From an uncultured Anaerolineaceae bacterium (GTDB lineage Bacteria; Chloroflexota; Anaerolineae; Anaerolineales; E44-bin32), in assembly GCA_964517315.1 (NCBI GenBank), contig CAZFCJ010000006.1, forward strand, positions 1-58,628: a stretch of DNA of 58,628 bases. Direction: 5' to 3'. The number at the start of each line of letters is the position of its first letter. The stretch's first letter is position 1. The translations under genes were made by a program, and so were the position numbers. Positions 28,696 to 35,046 of this stretch are shown piece by piece. Below the pieces are notes generated by a model that was given only the letters and a program-made list of their open reading frames with translations, searched no databases and was not told the origin of the DNA.

Positions 28696-28908
28696 TCAGG
28701 TGAGGTCCCGCTCGGCCCGATCCAGATAATCCTCCACCCTTTTCTCGGCCTCAGCCCGCTCGTAGCCGTAGCGCTCCTGGAGGGTTCCAATGAGGCGATC
28801 CCGACTGCCTTCGATCCGGGCCAAATCATCATCCGTAAGCTTGCCCCACTGCTGCTTGATCTTGCCCTTCAACTCCTTCCAGTTGCCACTCAGCACGTCC
28901 TTGTTCAT
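28696..28908 (-). CDS. csbD: CsbD family general stress protein
   Basis: MNKDVLSGNWKELKGKIKQQWGKLTDDDL...GTLQERYGY. Confidence 0.95.
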   Translation of the reverse strand: MNKDVLSGNWKELKGKIKQQWGKLTDDDLARIEGSRDRLIGTLQERYGYERAEAEKRVEDYLDRAERDLT

Positions 28909-29294: not shown

Positions 29295-31337
29295 ATGCTC
29301 CGTCGGGTCGTTTCCACTCTCCTCTTCATATCATCCACCGCCATGCTGGCGAGCCTTGTGATCCTGCCCGCCCGCCTCGGCTCCAGCATCTGGCTCAGCC
29401 CCCTCCAAACCACCCTGCTTATGTTGGTTCCATCGTTGGCGTTGGTCCTGCTGATCGTGGACCGGGCTCAATCGGGGCCCCCGCGCGCACAGGAGCAGGG
29501 GGGCTGGCTGAAGGACGAGCACGTCCATCAGATGATCGCCGAATTGGAAGATTACGCTATCTTCTTCCTGGACCCGGAGGGGACGGTCATTAGCTGGAAC
29601 AAGGGCGCCGGGAAGATCAAAGGCTACCAAGCTGACGAGATCATGGGTCAACACTTCTCGATTTTCTACCCCGAGGAGGACAGGGCCCGGGGTGTGCCCG
29701 CGAATAACCTAGAGATTGCCTGGAAGACGGGGAAACTTAGGACCGAGGGTTGGCGCCTGCGCAAGGATGGCACCCGTTTCCGGGCCGATGTCTTAATCGT
29801 TCCTTATTACGATCAGAAAGGAAATTTGTCAGCCTACGCCAAACTTACCCGCGATATTACCCCCTGGCATGAGGCCAGAATGGAGCTACGGAACAGTCAG
29901 CAACGGCTGGCGGAAGCCCAGCGAATTGCACGCATTGGAACTTGGGAGTGGAACCTGGAGTCGGATGAATGGTTATGGTCGCAGGAGCTGTACAGGATCT
30001 ACGGGCGGGATCCGGAGAGCTTTACACCCTCCTACGAGAGCTTATTGCAGGCGATGCCCCCCGAGGACCGTAAAAAGGCGAGGACGATCGTCGAGCGCTC
30101 ATTGCAAACCGGCGAACCTTTCCAATTTGGGCATCAACTGATACGGCTCGATGGTGATATCCGCACGGTCTATACCCACGGGCAGGTGGAGTTCGACCCA
30201 CAGGGCCAACCCATCCGAATGGTGGGTACCGGTCAAGATATCACAGAGCGTGTCCGGCTCGAGCGAGACTACATGATGCAGATCGAGCTGAACCAAAGTG
30301 TTGTCCGAGCGCAAAACGACCTGGGGCAGGGTGTGCTCATCACCGATGGGGATAACATCCTCTTCTACAATGATGTCTTTGCCGAAATCTTCAACTTGCC
30401 GGTGGGGCCGATCGAGTCGATCGAGGCTTTTCTGGGTCTCACTGGCGTGGATTCGGAATCTCATCTGCATGCCACGTTAACAACCACCCCGACCCCAACC
30501 GGCCGGATTGAAAGAGGCCAAGAGTTCCTCAACAGTCAGGAGGGCAAATACCTCGAATACGCTGCCACCTCGATGCGCATCCATGATCAAACCCGCAGAA
30601 TCGTCCTGCTCCAAGACATCACCGAGAGGAAAGAACTCCACCTCAGCCTTGAGGCTTCTCGCGAGAAACTGAAGCGATACTCGGCCGAACTGAATCGGGT
30701 CATCGAGCAGGAGCGCGCTTACATCGCCCGTCAGATACACGATGAATTGGGCCAGCAGTTGACGGGTCTCAAGATGGATCTATCCTTCCTTTCGGCCGAG
30801 CTGAGCAAAACCAACCATCCGGATACCCCATATTTTCTCCAGAAATTCGAGGAGATGATGGCCATGATCGAACACAGCGTCGATGCGGTTCGCAAGCTGG
30901 CCACCGAGCTGCGACCCGGCATCCTGGACAAGCTGGGCTTGTCGGCCGCTTTGGAATGGCAGGCCGCCGAGTTCCGGAAGCGAACTGGGGTGAAATGCCG
31001 CTATAGGGGAGCTAACTTGGGACGCATCGAGGATGAGGTCGCTACGGCCATGTTTCGGATCACGCAGGAGGCGTTGACCAATATCGCCCGCCACGCCCGC
31101 GCCGAGAATGTTGAGATCACGCTCGAATCGAACGAAGATAACGTCATCTTACAGATCAAGGACGATGGGCGGGGAATATCGGCTGAATCGCTCATGGGCA
31201 AGAACTCCTTGGGGATATTGGGCATGCGCGAACGAGCCGAGAACCTCGGCGGAAAGACGATCATCGCCCCCCGCTCCCGCAAGGGCACGGTTATTCACGT
31301 CACAATCCCAATGACACCGCTCGAGGACGATGGCTGA
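29295..31337 (+). CDS. Membrane PAS-domain sensor histidine kinase (HisKA_3, NarX/UhpB type)
   Basis: Two TM helices; PAS/PAC repeats; ERAYIARQIHDELGQQLT H-box, LRPGILD, QEALTNIARHA, DDGRG, GILGMRER. Confidence 0.93.
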   Translation: MLRRVVSTLLFISSTAMLASLVILPARLGSSIWLSPLQTTLLMLVPSLALVLLIVDRAQSGPPRAQEQGGWLKDEHVHQMIAELEDYAIFFLDPEGTVISWNKGAGKIKGYQADEIMGQHFSIFYPEEDRARGVPANNLEIAWKTGKLRTEGWRLRKDGTRFRADVLIVPYYDQKGNLSAYAKLTRDITPWHEARMELRNSQQRLAEAQRIARIGTWEWNLESDEWLWSQELYRIYGRDPESFTPSYESLLQAMPPEDRKKARTIVERSLQTGEPFQFGHQLIRLDGDIRTVYTHGQVEFDPQGQPIRMVGTGQDITERVRLERDYMMQIELNQSVVRAQNDLGQGVLITDGDNILFYNDVFAEIFNLPVGPIESIEAFLGLTGVDSESHLHATLTTTPTPTGRIERGQEFLNSQEGKYLEYAATSMRIHDQTRRIVLLQDITERKELHLSLEASREKLKRYSAELNRVIEQERAYIARQIHDELGQQLTGLKMDLSFLSAELSKTNHPDTPYFLQKFEEMMAMIEHSVDAVRKLATELRPGILDKLGLSAALEWQAAEFRKRTGVKCRYRGANLGRIEDEVATAMFRITQEALTNIARHARAENVEITLESNEDNVILQIKDDGRGISAESLMGKNSLGILGMRERAENLGGKTIIAPRSRKGTVIHVTIPMTPLEDDG

Positions 31338-31986
31338 AATGACGATGAAGGTGCTCGTCGCCGACGACCACGCGGTGGTGCGCCGTGGGATTCGCAATAT
31401 CCTGCGGGACTCGCCCAACATGACGGTGGCCGGCGAGGCTTCTTCCGGCGAGGAAGTACTGCGCATGGTCCGCGAACAGGAGTGGAACATCCTCGTCCTG
31501 GATATCACGCTGCCGGGAATTTCGGGCCTGGAGGTCCTACGAGAAGTCAAACGCCTTCAGCCAGGGTTGCCCATCTTAATCCTCAGTATGTATGAGGCCG
31601 ACCAATTCGCGATCCGAATGCTGAAGGCCGGCGCTTCCGGTTACATCAATAAGGAAAGCACGCCCGATGTCCTGGTGGAAGCCATCCACGAGGTCACTCA
31701 AGGTCGGCGCTATTTGACTCCTGAAGTGGCGGCCGTCATGGCCGAACACATCACCGACCGCCCATCGGAACCCGATCACGAGCTGCTTTCGGATCGCGAA
31801 TTTCAAGTCATCCGCGGGCTGGCTGAAGGGCGACGCATAAAAGACATCGCTGACGATCTTTCCCTCAGTCCAAAGACCGTGAGCACCTACCGACGGCGGG
31901 CGCTGGAGAAACTCGGCCTGGATACCGATGCGGAATTGATCCGCTACGCCCTGCAGGCGGGCCTTGTCGAGCCGGAATCCGACTGA
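31330..31986 (+). CDS. NarL/FixJ-family response regulator, UvrY/GacA-like
   Basis: ADDHAVVR, LDITLPG (phospho-Asp), LSM, GYINK; HTH LSDREFQV...LSLSPKTVSTYR. Confidence 0.93.
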   Translation: MAEMTMKVLVADDHAVVRRGIRNILRDSPNMTVAGEASSGEEVLRMVREQEWNILVLDITLPGISGLEVLREVKRLQPGLPILILSMYEADQFAIRMLKAGASGYINKESTPDVLVEAIHEVTQGRRYLTPEVAAVMAEHITDRPSEPDHELLSDREFQVIRGLAEGRRIKDIADDLSLSPKTVSTYRRRALEKLGLDTDAELIRYALQAGLVEPESD

Positions 31987-32053
31987 TCGGGCCGGCCAGC
32001 TTCTCCCCCACCTCTCGCCCCAACTCTATCTAAGAAACCTCCTCGTACTTTCT

Positions 32054-32071
32054 TGTAAGAATACGCTTACA
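32054..32071. promoter_or_regulatory. GacA/UvrY-type binding box
   Basis: TGTAAG-AATACG-CTTACA palindrome; extra CTTACA half-site at 32088-32093. Confidence 0.7.
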
Positions 32072-32194
32072 GCCATATCCGGCAAAACTTACAGCCGCGC
32101 CAGTCCTTGGCTGATAGCGACTTCTTCCGTGGCTATCTATGATTGCAATAACTCAGAACCATAGGAAACCGGGCGAAGTCAGATCGTCCATTCG

Positions 32195-32422
32195 ATGGAC
32201 ATCTTCATCGCTGATCACTGAAAAATCGCTGTAGAACGGTTGGCACCAATGATCGAGAACCAGTCTGAAATGGAGAACCGCGGATATGTGGGCGATGCCC
32301 ATCCTTCAGCCCACATGATCGTCATGTTCGAGCCGGACGTGGTGAGTACCGACATCCACGCGCCGATGAACGGCTTCAGCCTGATTGAGATCTTGAGGAG
32401 GTCGAAGGAACACCGATTTTGA
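32195..32422 (+). pseudogene. Degenerate receiver-domain gene
   Basis: MDIFIADH*KIAVERLAPM...GYVGDA...EPDVVSTDIHAPMNGFSLIE; in-frame TGA 32219-32221 and a premature end. Confidence 0.6.
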
Positions 32423-32574
32423 CCGTCCATTCTCCTGTCAAGTAGGCACCAAATACTTCTTCGACAAATTTACAGGGTTCGATTCGGTTATCGGGATTCT
32501 TGGTAGCCGAGCAACTGCCCGATCTCGAAGCACTTATACCAGATGGATTTATCTATTCGAAAAGGGAGGAAGAG

Positions 32575-33276
32575 ATGACTCAGGAGGATACCCCAGCCAG
32601 GAAGATCAAGGTGCTGATCATCGACTCAGATTCCGTCCGCATCTCCAATCGGATGACGGAGTTCGCCAAATTCGGGGATTTCGGTGAGATCCGTAGCGGC
32701 CTGGGACCTGACGCCATCCACGCGTTTCCGGAGGATCAAACCTTCGACGTGTGCCTGACGAGCAGCGATCACCTCTTACCGAAAGCCCTCCATCTGCTGG
32801 TCAAAACAGCCCGGCAGCACGATCCTCGGATGAAGATCATCGTGACCGAGGCGCCCGAAGAACCCGAGCGCATCCTCCAGTACCTTGAAGCGGGTGCTTG
32901 GGCGTACGTCTGCCGATTGGCGAGCATCGATGAGCTGGCCAACCGCATCCGCAGCGCGGTCCGTGGCTCCATCCAATTCTCGCCCGCGGTGGCCGGCGCG
33001 CTGGTTGGCCGCATCCAGGAATTGAGCTCCAGGCACACCAGCGGCGTATCTTTAGTCAACGGATACGCGGAGCTCACTCCGCGCGAGCACGAGGTCCTGG
33101 CATTGATTGGTCAGCGCATGACCAATCGACAGATCGCCAAAGAGCTCGTGCTGGAGGTGGGAACGGTCAAGAACCACGTGCATAACCTGCTCAAAAAGCT
33201 CGACGTCGACAACCGCTATGAGGCAGCCGCCTACAGTTTGAGCGGCCCAGTCACGGTTCACTCGGGCAAGTATTAA
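32575..33276 (+). CDS. LuxR-family regulator with atypical receiver domain
   Basis: LTPREHEVL...TNRQIAKEL...GTVKNHVHNLLKKL HTH; receiver DVCLTSS lacks the phospho-Asp; GGGAGG RBS. Confidence 0.88.
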   Translation: MTQEDTPARKIKVLIIDSDSVRISNRMTEFAKFGDFGEIRSGLGPDAIHAFPEDQTFDVCLTSSDHLLPKALHLLVKTARQHDPRMKIIVTEAPEEPERILQYLEAGAWAYVCRLASIDELANRIRSAVRGSIQFSPAVAGALVGRIQELSSRHTSGVSLVNGYAELTPREHEVLALIGQRMTNRQIAKELVLEVGTVKNHVHNLLKKLDVDNRYEAAAYSLSGPVTVHSGKY

Positions 33277-33303
33277 CAAAGATCCGGCGAACGGGAAAAG
33301 AGG

Positions 33304-34008
33304 ATGAGCACGGTAATGGAAGGTTCAGACAAGAAAAAGGTGTTGATCATCGCGTCGAACGCCCTGCTGGCCAACCTATGGCGTTCGGCCTTCGAAGGGG
33401 ATGCCGAGTTTGAGATATTCGCCGTTGAGTCCTCCTTCGCGGATGGCTCCAACGCGCTCCGCCAGGCCGATCTCGTGCTGGTTAACGTCCTGGAGCGGGT
33501 CGAGCAGGGGCTGCAGTGGGTGGTGAAGATCAAGCTACAAGCCCCTCGCAGTCGAGTAGTAGTGTTGGGCATCCCGCGCCGGGAGCACATCCTGCTGGCC
33601 TATATCGAGGCCGGCGCGGTCGGCTTCGTCCCGGAAGATTCATCTTTAGAAGAAGCGCGCGAAGCCATGCAGGCCGCCGCGGCCGGCGCAGCTATTCTCG
33701 ATCCCCAAGTCACGCCAGCCCTCATCAACAGGCTTCACAGCTTGCAGAACGGATACCACGAACCGGACACGGCCGGGCGCCGTATAAAGCAGCTGACTCC
33801 GCGAGAGCAAGAAGTGCTCGAGCTGGTCTCCGAGAAGATGACCAATCGAGAGATTGCTAAAGAGCTGGTTATCGAATTGGGAACGGTCAAGAACCACGTG
33901 CACAGCATTCTGGAAAAGCTGGAGTTTAACAGCCGCTATGAAGCTGCGGCCTACTATCACTCGGCCCTTCGTTCCATAGATAACCCCACCAAACGGCAAG
34001 CCTCCTAG
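33304..34008 (+). CDS. LuxR-family regulator with atypical receiver domain
   Basis: LTPREQEVL...TNREIAKEL...GTVKNHVHSILEKL; receiver DLVLVNV has Asn at the Asp position. Confidence 0.9.
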   Translation: MSTVMEGSDKKKVLIIASNALLANLWRSAFEGDAEFEIFAVESSFADGSNALRQADLVLVNVLERVEQGLQWVVKIKLQAPRSRVVVLGIPRREHILLAYIEAGAVGFVPEDSSLEEAREAMQAAAAGAAILDPQVTPALINRLHSLQNGYHEPDTAGRRIKQLTPREQEVLELVSEKMTNREIAKELVIELGTVKNHVHSILEKLEFNSRYEAAAYYHSALRSIDNPTKRQAS

Positions 34009-34157
34009 TCGAGGACACAGCTTCCCAGTGTGGCGGGAACGGCGCTGTCGACTTGGGGAGACCATCGATCCGATTCCCGATGAGTCAGGATGCGCCACGG
34101 ATGGATGGCAAGAGTCACCTGAAGGGCATGAGGCTCGGATGGATCACGATAGGAGCG

Positions 34158-34604
34158 ATGGACTTGTCATTTCAAATAGAAGTACTCATGGAGATCTCGC
34201 TGGCGCTGATCTTCGGGGGCCTCATCGGACTTGAGCGGGAGCTGCGGGACAAGCCCGCCGGCTTACGAACCCACATGCTGGCTGCGGGCAGCTCCGCGTT
34301 GTTTATCGCTTTGGGGAACTACATCGTTCAAGAATTCACCTTCCCTGCTTACGTAACCACCGATCCCATTCGCATCATCCAAGCCATTATCGTCGGTATC
34401 AGCTTTTTAGGCGCCGGCACCATACTGCAGCGCAATGATGGTGGCGGAGTGGAAGGCCTGACCACGGCCGCCTCGGTGTTGGCCTCCGCCGGCGTTGGAA
34501 TCAGCTTGGCCATGCGCTTGTTCGTCATCGCTACTGGCATGACTGCGCTGATCCTCATCACCAACCGCCTCTTAGGTCTGCTGGAAGCCCGCTACCTTCA
34601 TTAG
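34158..34604 (+). CDS. MgtC/SapB family membrane protein
   Basis: GLERE..DKPAGLRTH, DPIRI, GISFLGAGTI, GLTTAAS. Confidence 0.92.
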   Translation: MDLSFQIEVLMEISLALIFGGLIGLERELRDKPAGLRTHMLAAGSSALFIALGNYIVQEFTFPAYVTTDPIRIIQAIIVGISFLGAGTILQRNDGGGVEGLTTAASVLASAGVGISLAMRLFVIATGMTALILITNRLLGLLEARYLH

Positions 34605-34664
34605 CTGGCTGAAGCGAGGTGGTCGAGAACCTCGCTCCAAGTGCACACCCTCCGTTGTGCCCGT

Positions 34665-34699
34665 GATCTATCAACCAAGCTCTGCCTTCGATCTAAATT
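34665..34699 (+). promoter_or_regulatory. Island promoter motif GATCTAT-N22-TAAATT
   Basis: Read directly, upstream of 34777. Confidence 0.6.
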
Positions 34700-34776
34700 C
34701 GAAGGGCCAAACGGCGGCCCGGCCCTGCCGGTTCGGCGGTTGCAATGAATCCAGACTTCGAAGAGGGAGGATCAAT

Positions 34777-35046
34777 ATGGTTCGACGAGAGTACGATGAT
34801 TATGAACCCGGCTTCCGCGAGGACTATGAGGAGCTCTACGAAGACACGGAATACGGATATGAACATTATGAGCGTGCCTATCGATACGGTTACGACTTGG
34901 CCACCCGCCACGGTGCCAACCGCTGGGAAGATTACGAAGAGCAAGCCCGCCGCGAATGGGAGCAGCGTGGCCAGGGGCCCTGGGAGGACTTCAAGGACGC
35001 CGTCCGGCACGCTTGGGAAGAAGTGACCGGTGAGGAGCAACAATAG
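34777..35046 (+). CDS. Small acidic, Tyr/Trp-rich conserved hypothetical protein
   Basis: GGGAGG RBS; AYRYGY...W...ARREWE...WEDFKDAVRHAWE. Confidence 0.75.
   Translation: MVRREYDDYEPGFREDYEELYEDTEYGYEHYERAYRYGYDLATRHGANRWEDYEEQARREWEQRGQGPWEDFKDAVRHAWEEVTGEEQQ

Follow-up and report, generated by a model that had tools for sequence, protein, structure and literature searches.

The 18-bp inverted repeat TGTAAGN6CTTACA is the box of the response regulators UvrY and GacA, as given in the available part of PMC3171408. At promoters that are activated by BvgA, phosphorylated BvgA (BvgA~P) is described as binding in head-to-head dimers, whose centres are 22 bp apart on a single helix face (PMC7250471). 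The strongest consensus site at these promoters takes the most upstream position, and the most downstream one adjoins the -35 region; the primary BvgA site of the Pfha promoter is given there as TAAGAAATTTCCTA (PMC7250471). In a third system, FixT feeds back on FixL (available part of PMC7078487).

The palindrome and the kinase and regulator genes upstream

The window, i.e., the whole stretch of DNA that was analyzed, is 58,628 nt in length. A pattern search of the window shows that TGTAAGAATACGCTTACA at positions 32054–32071 is TGTAAG-N6-CTTACA with 0 mismatches. It starts 67 nt past the TGA stop codon (31984–31986) of a response regulator gene. A sequence-only reading of this DNA had reported a perfect GacA/UvrY box behind the regulator, together with a second half-site, and both are confirmed. 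The spelling is that of the published UvrY/GacA consensus as it appears in the available part of PMC3171408. CTTACAGCC is present in exactly two copies in the window, at 32066–32074 and, 22 nt on, at 32088–32096.

The box is rare. By arithmetic, a perfect box with its 12 fixed bases is expected about 0.004 times per window. When up to 2 mismatches are permitted, there are 2 matches in the window vs. 0.47 expected from shuffles. The genome assembly (G000) has 4.06 Mb in 326 contigs and is 89% complete; its sole perfect box is the one at 32054–32071 and its sole box with 1 mismatch is at positions 1202–1219 of contig C186. A reversed-pattern control across the 4.06 Mb assembly gave 0 matches. 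Half-site hexamers (CYTACA/TGTARG) are found 24 times in the 58.6 kb, and three are inside 40 nt at the box. The core palindrome shows no enrichment genome-wide, with 7 sites (14 strand hits) vs. 38–58 strand hits in mononucleotide shuffles. The box is identical in independent contigs from two public runs of one study.

The two genes upstream of the box are as follows.

29295–31337, + strand: sensor histidine kinase of 680 aa (ORF list; Pfam domains PAS, PAS, HisKA_3 and HATPase_c)
31330–31986, + strand: NarL/FixJ-type response regulator of 218 aa (Pfam receiver and GerE helix-turn-helix)

The kinase has two hydrophobic segments at the N-terminus, and Pfam shows no receiver and no Hpt domain in 29295–31337. 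The kinase ORF and the start of the regulator overlap by 8 nt. A CsbD-like small stress protein is encoded just 5' of the kinase (28696–28908, - strand).

The regulator has Pfam scores of 101.5 bits for Response_reg and 58.1 bits for GerE. It belongs to the NarL/FixJ family, with a receiver that has the phospho-acceptor Asp (aligned with the Asp of UvrY), a C-terminal GerE/LuxR helix-turn-helix and an adjoining HisKA_3 kinase. Its top NCBIfam match is UvrY/SirA/GacA (NF007018) at 190.9 bits, E 2e-56, which is less than the cut-off of 280 bits. No protein in the genome passes this cut-off; the E. coli control does. The aa sequence identity to E. coli UvrY is 36% over 213 residues. The recognition helix, SPKTVSTYRRR, is nearly identical to that of E. 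coli UvrY; in the alignment the recognition stretch is LSLSPKTVSTYRRR in the regulator and LNLSPKTVNSYRYR in UvrY. The earlier statement that the recognition region resembles UvrY/GacA is borne out by this alignment, and UvrY/GacA is the best-scoring named family. The label of a UvrY-like regulator is correct for the helix but does not extend to a BarA/UvrY orthologue, as the score is short of the cut-off and the kinase has the PAS-HisKA_3 architecture. A contig search with the regulator gave a sole match, in a Rhodoferax MAG, with 45% identity and without a box behind the gene. In a protein-cluster search the nearest proteins are generic LuxR-family regulators, which are commonest in Pseudomonadota. 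LpxC and Omp85 were not found in the genome of the window, with positive diderm controls, and the host is probably non-proteobacterial, in agreement with the earlier reading.

The region downstream of the box

Three features are found between the promoter region and position 34008.

32195–32528, + strand: pseudogene of a single-domain receiver (tblastn, receiver profile)
32575–33276, + strand: atypical LuxR-type regulator 1, with a pseudo-receiver without phospho-acceptor Asp, a GerE domain and the helix GTVKNHVHN
33304–34008, + strand: atypical LuxR-type regulator 2, with Asn at the phospho-acceptor position and a GerE domain

The segment 32100–32575, within the seemingly intergenic 590 nt, represents the receiver pseudogene and its leader, and not a small RNA. 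The ATG at 32195 is followed by an in-frame TGA at 32219–32221. The N-terminal part extends to approximately 32410, and the C-terminal part (32433–32528) is in another frame. A tblastn search with receivers from related loci gives two colinear pieces in different frames, the C-terminal piece being GTKYFFDKFTGFD in the window and GAQYFFDKSTDFE in the related receiver. A receiver profile was made from ten receivers that are linked to the promoter module described below, and was scored on 1,904 six-frame segments of the window. Segment 32222–32419 matches profile positions 13–74 (E 2e-6) and segment 32397–32684 matches positions 93–124 (E 1.6e-4). The two rank next after the regulator's own receiver domain; profile positions 75–92 are missing. 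A Pfam search with the two fragments alone shows no family at E ≤1. The stop codon is unchanged in contigs of three runs from two studies and the frame junction is unchanged in contigs of two runs from one study, with no insertions or deletions at either lesion, where one of the runs that cover the lesions may be the source sample.

A perfect GacA consensus, and a regulator whose best-scoring named family is UvrY/GacA, speak for a true Gac/Csr switch, in which a GacA/UvrY orthologue drives a GGA-rich RNA that titrates a CsrA-like protein. The box TGTAAG-N6-CTTACA is the one character of such a system that is found. The regulator is at 190.9 bits against the 280-bit cut-off, and the kinase does not have the receiver and Hpt domains of BarA/GacS, where a tripartite kinase (HisKA, receiver, Hpt) is typical. 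CsrA (PF02599) was not found in the genome of the window, which is 89% complete, with E. coli, B. subtilis and T. maritima as positive controls; it was likewise not found in 5 of 5 other module-bearing genomes that are 90–97% complete. An Rfam search of 31000–34500 at E ≤10 gave two chance snoRNA matches, both outside 32100–32575, and at the gathering score nothing was found in the 13 module loci. The GGA density of 2.55 per 100 nt is ordinary compared with the window mean of 2.08 ± 0.76, and 178 of 582 windows are as high or higher. This locus is not a Gac/Csr system, and the switch is very improbable and largely refuted. A Gac/Csr small-RNA system should not be concluded from a perfect 'GacA box'.

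A small RNA encoded in 32100–32575 was considered as a candidate and was rejected on the basis of Rfam, the GGA density and the receiver pseudogene. The absence of a GGA-repeat small RNA behind the box had been predicted from the letters alone, and agrees with these results. The same prediction named the LuxR pair as the genes driven by the box. This part is not sustained for the first target, which is the receiver pseudogene.

In the LuxR pair the phospho-acceptor Asp is replaced by Thr/Ser or Asn. The helix GTVKNHVHN is NarL-like and not UvrY-like. An MgtC-family gene is located at 34053–34604. It is followed at 34657–35046 (+ strand) by a 129-aa ORF that is Glu/Tyr/Arg-rich and repeat-like (YEELYEDTEYGYEHYERAYRYGYD).

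A conserved module in related loci

The box is part of a larger element, and its parts in the window are listed here.

32054–32071, no strand: putative dimer site 1, the perfect inverted repeat TGTAAG-N6-CTTACA (12 other modules align here with their site 1/2)
32076–32093, + strand: putative dimer site 2, with the right half CTTACA at 32088–32093 and a degenerate left half
32099–32119, + strand: putative dimer site 3, with the right half CTGATAGCG from 32111 (alignment column with CCGACAGAC/CCGATAGAC)
32138–32143, + strand: predicted -10 hexamer TATGAT (alignment of 13 modules; 27 nt counted from the first base of the last half-site)

Thirty-three homologous regulator loci were compared: the window, the C186 locus, 2 from 41 relatives and 29 from 401 genomes of the class, where 40 of the 401 genomes have a regulator match at E ≤1e-52. 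Related genomes among these are not independent samples. A clear module that aligns nearly gap-free over about 100 nt is present in 13 of the 33 loci, from six families (f1, f42, f58, f59, f64 and f73). One locus (L036) has a variant module with TGTAGA, TCTACA and GCTACA, and two (L060 and L004) have a partial module. In L042 the contig ends 186 nt after the regulator. The other 16 loci have no module within 300 nt of the regulator, and have the same recognition helix. The module profile was built from these loci and then scored on them, and its only independent matches are a second copy in L035 and a weak match in L036.

The module is about 90 nt in length and consists of the inverted repeat, two more half-sites at steps of 22–23 nt, and the -10 hexamer. 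Its geometry is rigid. The spacing is 12–13 nt from half-site 1 to 2, 22–23 nt from 2 to 3, 22–23 nt from 3 to 4, and 27 nt from half-site 4 to the -10 (TATAAT, TATACT or TACAAT; TATGAT in the window), in 13 of 13 modules in each case. The sequence between the sites varies between families while these spacings hold. A conserved AG is found 8–9 nt before each downstream CCTACA, in the same place as in TGTAGG, and this fits degenerate left half-sites. At the normal -35 distance, which is 17±1 nt from the -10, the 13 modules have no hexamer in common. Matches to GTARG-N6/7-CYTAC number 7 in the 9,786 nt after regulator stop codons vs. 1 in the remaining 104,686 nt of these loci. Immediately ahead of site 1, four loci have a hairpin with a T-run, which indicates that the module starts a new transcription unit.

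The half-site consensus of the family is TGTAGG/CCTACA. The window has the A/T variant of this at all three strong sites, and for this reason its box has the perfect GacA spelling. The identification as a GacA box is thus accurate in spelling but not in describing a lone box, as it represents the first site in a module for a predicted three dimers, and the consensus of the family is TGTAGG-N6/7-CCTACA. In the window, the site 2 half CTTACA begins 22 nt after the preceding CTTACA, and the site 3 half CTGATAGCG starts 23 nt after the site 2 half. With a transcription start predicted near 32150, the site 3 half covers about -39 to -34 and abuts the -35 region, and the three dimer centres would be near about -87, -65 and -42. 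A consensus promoter scan of 31800–32800 found 0 sigma-70-like sites and no canonical -35/-10 pair, so that the -10 assignment in the window is based on the module alignment alone. This outcome is expected if the promoter is activator-dependent. The window hexamer TATGAT is weaker than the TATAAT of its relatives, and the promoter itself could be decaying, given that its first gene is dead.

Contig C186 of the same genome has a paralogous kinase-regulator locus. Its regulator is 50% identical to that of the window, with MctR as a near-best NCBIfam name, and TGTAAGCTTTTTCCTACA is 51 nt past the stop codon. A third CCTACA is located 23 nt further, and the next genes encode a receiver and an atypical LuxR protein. 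In the sister-species orthologue of this locus the regulators are 68% identical, and TGTAGGACTGGTCCTACG is 5 nt past the stop codon. Conservation of the box in related loci had been proposed as a check on the earlier reading; its position is kept in the C186 paralogue, in the sister species and in 13 of the 33 loci. A regulon search of the genome with the module profile finds just two loci, the window and C186, and all other matches are at E ≥1.6.

These data bear on the possibility that the palindrome arose by chance, or forms a hairpin in the RNA of the kinase-regulator operon or acts as its terminator. A 7-bp stem with a delta G of -5.3 kcal/mol can be formed, and the position after a stop codon would suit a terminator. 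However, there is no T-run and no terminator call in 31800–32800, and the direct-repeat half-sites at steps of 22–23 nt are conserved without a hairpin partner. The sole perfect copy in 4 Mb is also in the same place as in the paralogue. The conservation pattern refutes this explanation, and the likelihood that remains to it is negligible.

In ten loci (L002, L005, L035, L036, L039, L040, L041, L048, L055 and L060) the module is followed first by a single-domain receiver gene, where L036 has the variant module and L060 the partial one. The module-linked receivers have an N-terminus like MLKVVIADDSALVRERL and a YFFDK tail. The Asp is kept, so that these receivers should be phosphorylatable. In L039 and L055 the receiver ATG is about 9 nt after the predicted -10 (TATACT/TACAAT ... 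ATG), and the mRNA may lack a leader. The receiver is replaced by a small membrane protein in L038. Of the two modules in L035, the first precedes a small basic ORF (MADKTSQTKPKRLSKGQRKH...), and the receiver gene comes right after the second.

Several loci have features of their own. L035 (G229) carries two tandem full modules, about 45 and 420 nt past the regulator stop codon, with nhmmer E values of 7e-17 and 1e-15. L037, L040, L041 and L048 have a conserved leader start, GGTGTTGGGCAAAG, right after the -10, and an untranslated region of 85–100 nt ahead of the receiver gene, with no match to an Rfam family. In L057 and L058 the module is absent, and another promoter-like stretch (AAATTGGGGTTGTTCG...ACTTGCACTATTT...GTGTGATATA) is shared, about 60–110 nt past the regulator stop codon and ahead of a small Cys-rich ORF. 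Small membrane proteins (MINLIVTIIVGAIIGW...) are encoded downstream of the cassette in L035, L038 and L039. Together with the CsbD-like protein they may hint at a stress-response theme.

L036 (G125) is the sole module in which the first C is lost in the half-sites, and its regulator helix has Ser for the usual Lys (SVSTVSTYR). This single case possibly represents protein-DNA co-variation. Comparison of the residue before the helix Lys with the choice of C or T in the half-site shows no clean co-variation.

Metagenome contigs were also scanned for TGTAGG-N6/7-CCTACA-N17-CCTACA, blind to genes, and at least 121 stretches were found. DNA was retrieved for 80 loci among the matches listed, representing 77 distinct module strings, with the orientation set by the third site. 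Among these matches, 25 of 80 loci have a family regulator upstream in the same orientation, and 0 of 80 have it solely in another arrangement. The end of the regulator is within 400 nt in 23 of these 25 listed cases, and at 740 and 1,003 nt in the other two; 20 of the 25 have the helix S-x-K-T-[VI]-S-x-Y-R. Five of the 80 listed loci have a receiver only, and 50 have neither a regulator nor a receiver within 1.3 kb. An in-phase fourth half-site is present in 15 of 79 of the loci listed vs. 0–1 of 78 at shifted offsets. The link between module and regulator gene is strong, directional and frequent, but is not obligatory or universal. The remaining motif loci may be other targets, sites of other regulators, or chance matches. 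Several of the metagenome matches listed (e.g., L084, L130 and L123) have TGTAGGAAATTTCCTACA, which contains the symmetric inverted heptad TAGGAAATTTCCTA, one base off the Pfha primary site quoted for BvgA. These matches are without a family regulator within 1.3 kb.

The 50 of 80 listed motif loci without a regulator nearby are an argument for another binder, either by autoregulation through the downstream LuxR proteins or through an unlinked global factor, with the position of the module reflecting conserved gene order only. LuxR DNA-binding proteins are encoded next door, and binding by the regulator itself is a prediction. However, LuxR-type genes are behind the module at only three loci, all of this genus, and are found in none of the five other families. 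Sites of the type TARG-N6-CYTA go with a UvrY/BvgA-like helix, whereas GTVKNHVHN resembles that of NarL. The NarL-like helix and the absence from most module-bearing loci make the LuxR pair a poor candidate. The regulator is the only DNA-binding gene that consistently adjoins the module, and another binder is therefore rather improbable.

Mode of action and comparison with known systems

The best explanation, to which we assign a probability of roughly two in three, is that the phosphorylated regulator binds the module sites and activates the downstream unit. The palindrome would be the strongest and most upstream site of the promoter, which would be activator-dependent and part of the preceding two-component system. 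A first regulator dimer would occupy TGTAAG-N6-CTTACA, and two further dimers would bind cooperatively at 22–23 bp steps on the same helix face, the last one abutting the -35 region. Such an array is predicted to recruit RNA polymerase to the -10 TATGAT (32138–32143), with a start near 32150. The lack of a conserved -35 and of a consensus promoter fits activator dependence.

NarL-family regulators can repress. The same regulator may therefore have a negative action, with dimers that spread to the -35 and shut the promoter, or that block read-through from the kinase and regulator genes. The last site overlaps the position of the polymerase contact at -35, and in the window the regulator gene and the box are not separated by a terminator, which makes read-through possible. 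Against this, the 13 modules have no usable -35 at 17±1 nt from the -10, which is typical of activator-dependent promoters, and four loci have a terminator-like hairpin ahead of the module. The geometry also equals that of BvgA-activated promoters as described in the accessible portion of PMC7250471. Repression is considered unlikely.

Under activation by the phosphorylated regulator, the promoter in related loci would drive the single-domain receiver. Its probable role is feedback on the kinase of that system, either as a phosphate sink or by inhibition, by analogy with FixT. Expression of FixT depends on the FixL-FixJ pathway. In the window, where the receiver has decayed, the two phosphorylation-independent LuxR-type regulators would be the main products of the transcript.

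A broader reading, plausible but tentative, is that the module belongs to a widespread self-contained cassette of Chloroflexota-like soil and sediment bacteria. This cassette would comprise a PAS kinase, a UvrY/BvgA-like regulator, a three-dimer promoter (12–13/23/23/27 nt) and a receiver that provides built-in feedback, and the TARG-N6-CYTA code and two-turn multi-dimer design, familiar from BvgA and GacA, would be an ancient trait of the regulator subfamily that is kept across phyla. If so, the window represents a dead feedback arm, with a promoter taken over by two phosphorylation-independent LuxR regulators. The compact arrangement of regulator, promoter and receiver is a candidate natural feedback module.

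The open-access literature searched has no relevant report of a module of this kind in Chloroflexi. The locus is a known kind of regulator-operator system and a new, well-defined example of it. It provides a testable regulator-operator pair for a class with almost no experimentally known transcription-factor sites, with precise predictions for the half-site, the spacing and the place of the -10. The example suggests that the way in which the GacA/UvrY/BvgA helix reads DNA is shared well beyond the Proteobacteria. If so, the regulons of such regulators may be predictable from sequence in uncultured bacteria.

Compared with the known systems, the GacA/UvrY box of the Csr/Rsm small RNAs of Gammaproteobacteria has the same 18-bp consensus as the window (PMC3171408), and E. 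coli UvrY, at 36% identity, has a near-identical recognition helix. The differences are that the target in the window is a protein-coding operon, that CsrA was not found, and that the kinase is not BarA/GacS-like. In addition, the regulator does not reach the NCBIfam cut-off, the class consensus is TGTAGG/CCTACA, and the sites form a three-site array.

The FixL-FixJ-FixT system, to the extent covered by the available source, likewise combines a PAS kinase, a NarL/FixJ-family regulator and a single-domain receiver. Unlike FixT as described there, the receiver gene of the present loci follows the regulator gene immediately and is under a promoter that carries the probable sites of this regulator, and its product has a conserved YFFDK tail. 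The window differs further in that its receiver is dead.

The promoters of the Pfha type that are activated by BvgA share with the module the inverted half-site core TA(A/G)G-N6-C(C/T)TA (accessible portion of PMC7250471). Indeed, the TAAGAAATTTCCTA quoted in that portion can be read as TAAG-N6-CCTA, the same core as in the window module. In both, the strongest and most symmetric site is furthest upstream, the steps are of about two turns, and the last site abuts the -35 (accessible portion of PMC7250471). The step is 22 bp at the BvgA promoters described there and 22–23 in the modules, mostly 23 nt, and both BvgA and the window regulator are of the NarL/FixJ type (PMC7250471). BvgA is from another phylum, acts on virulence genes and has a BvgS-type hybrid kinase, whereas the module has a receiver as cargo, placed by its own operon, and a PAS/HisKA_3 kinase. 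The likeness to BvgA, within what the source describes, is one of promoter sites and geometry, and for the module we infer the binding itself. All 13 modules have the BvgA-type geometry, with 12–13, 22–23, 22–23 and 27 nt to the -10, when compared with the promoters described in that portion. By this analogy, the module appears to work like a BvgA-type promoter with a GacA-type half-site.
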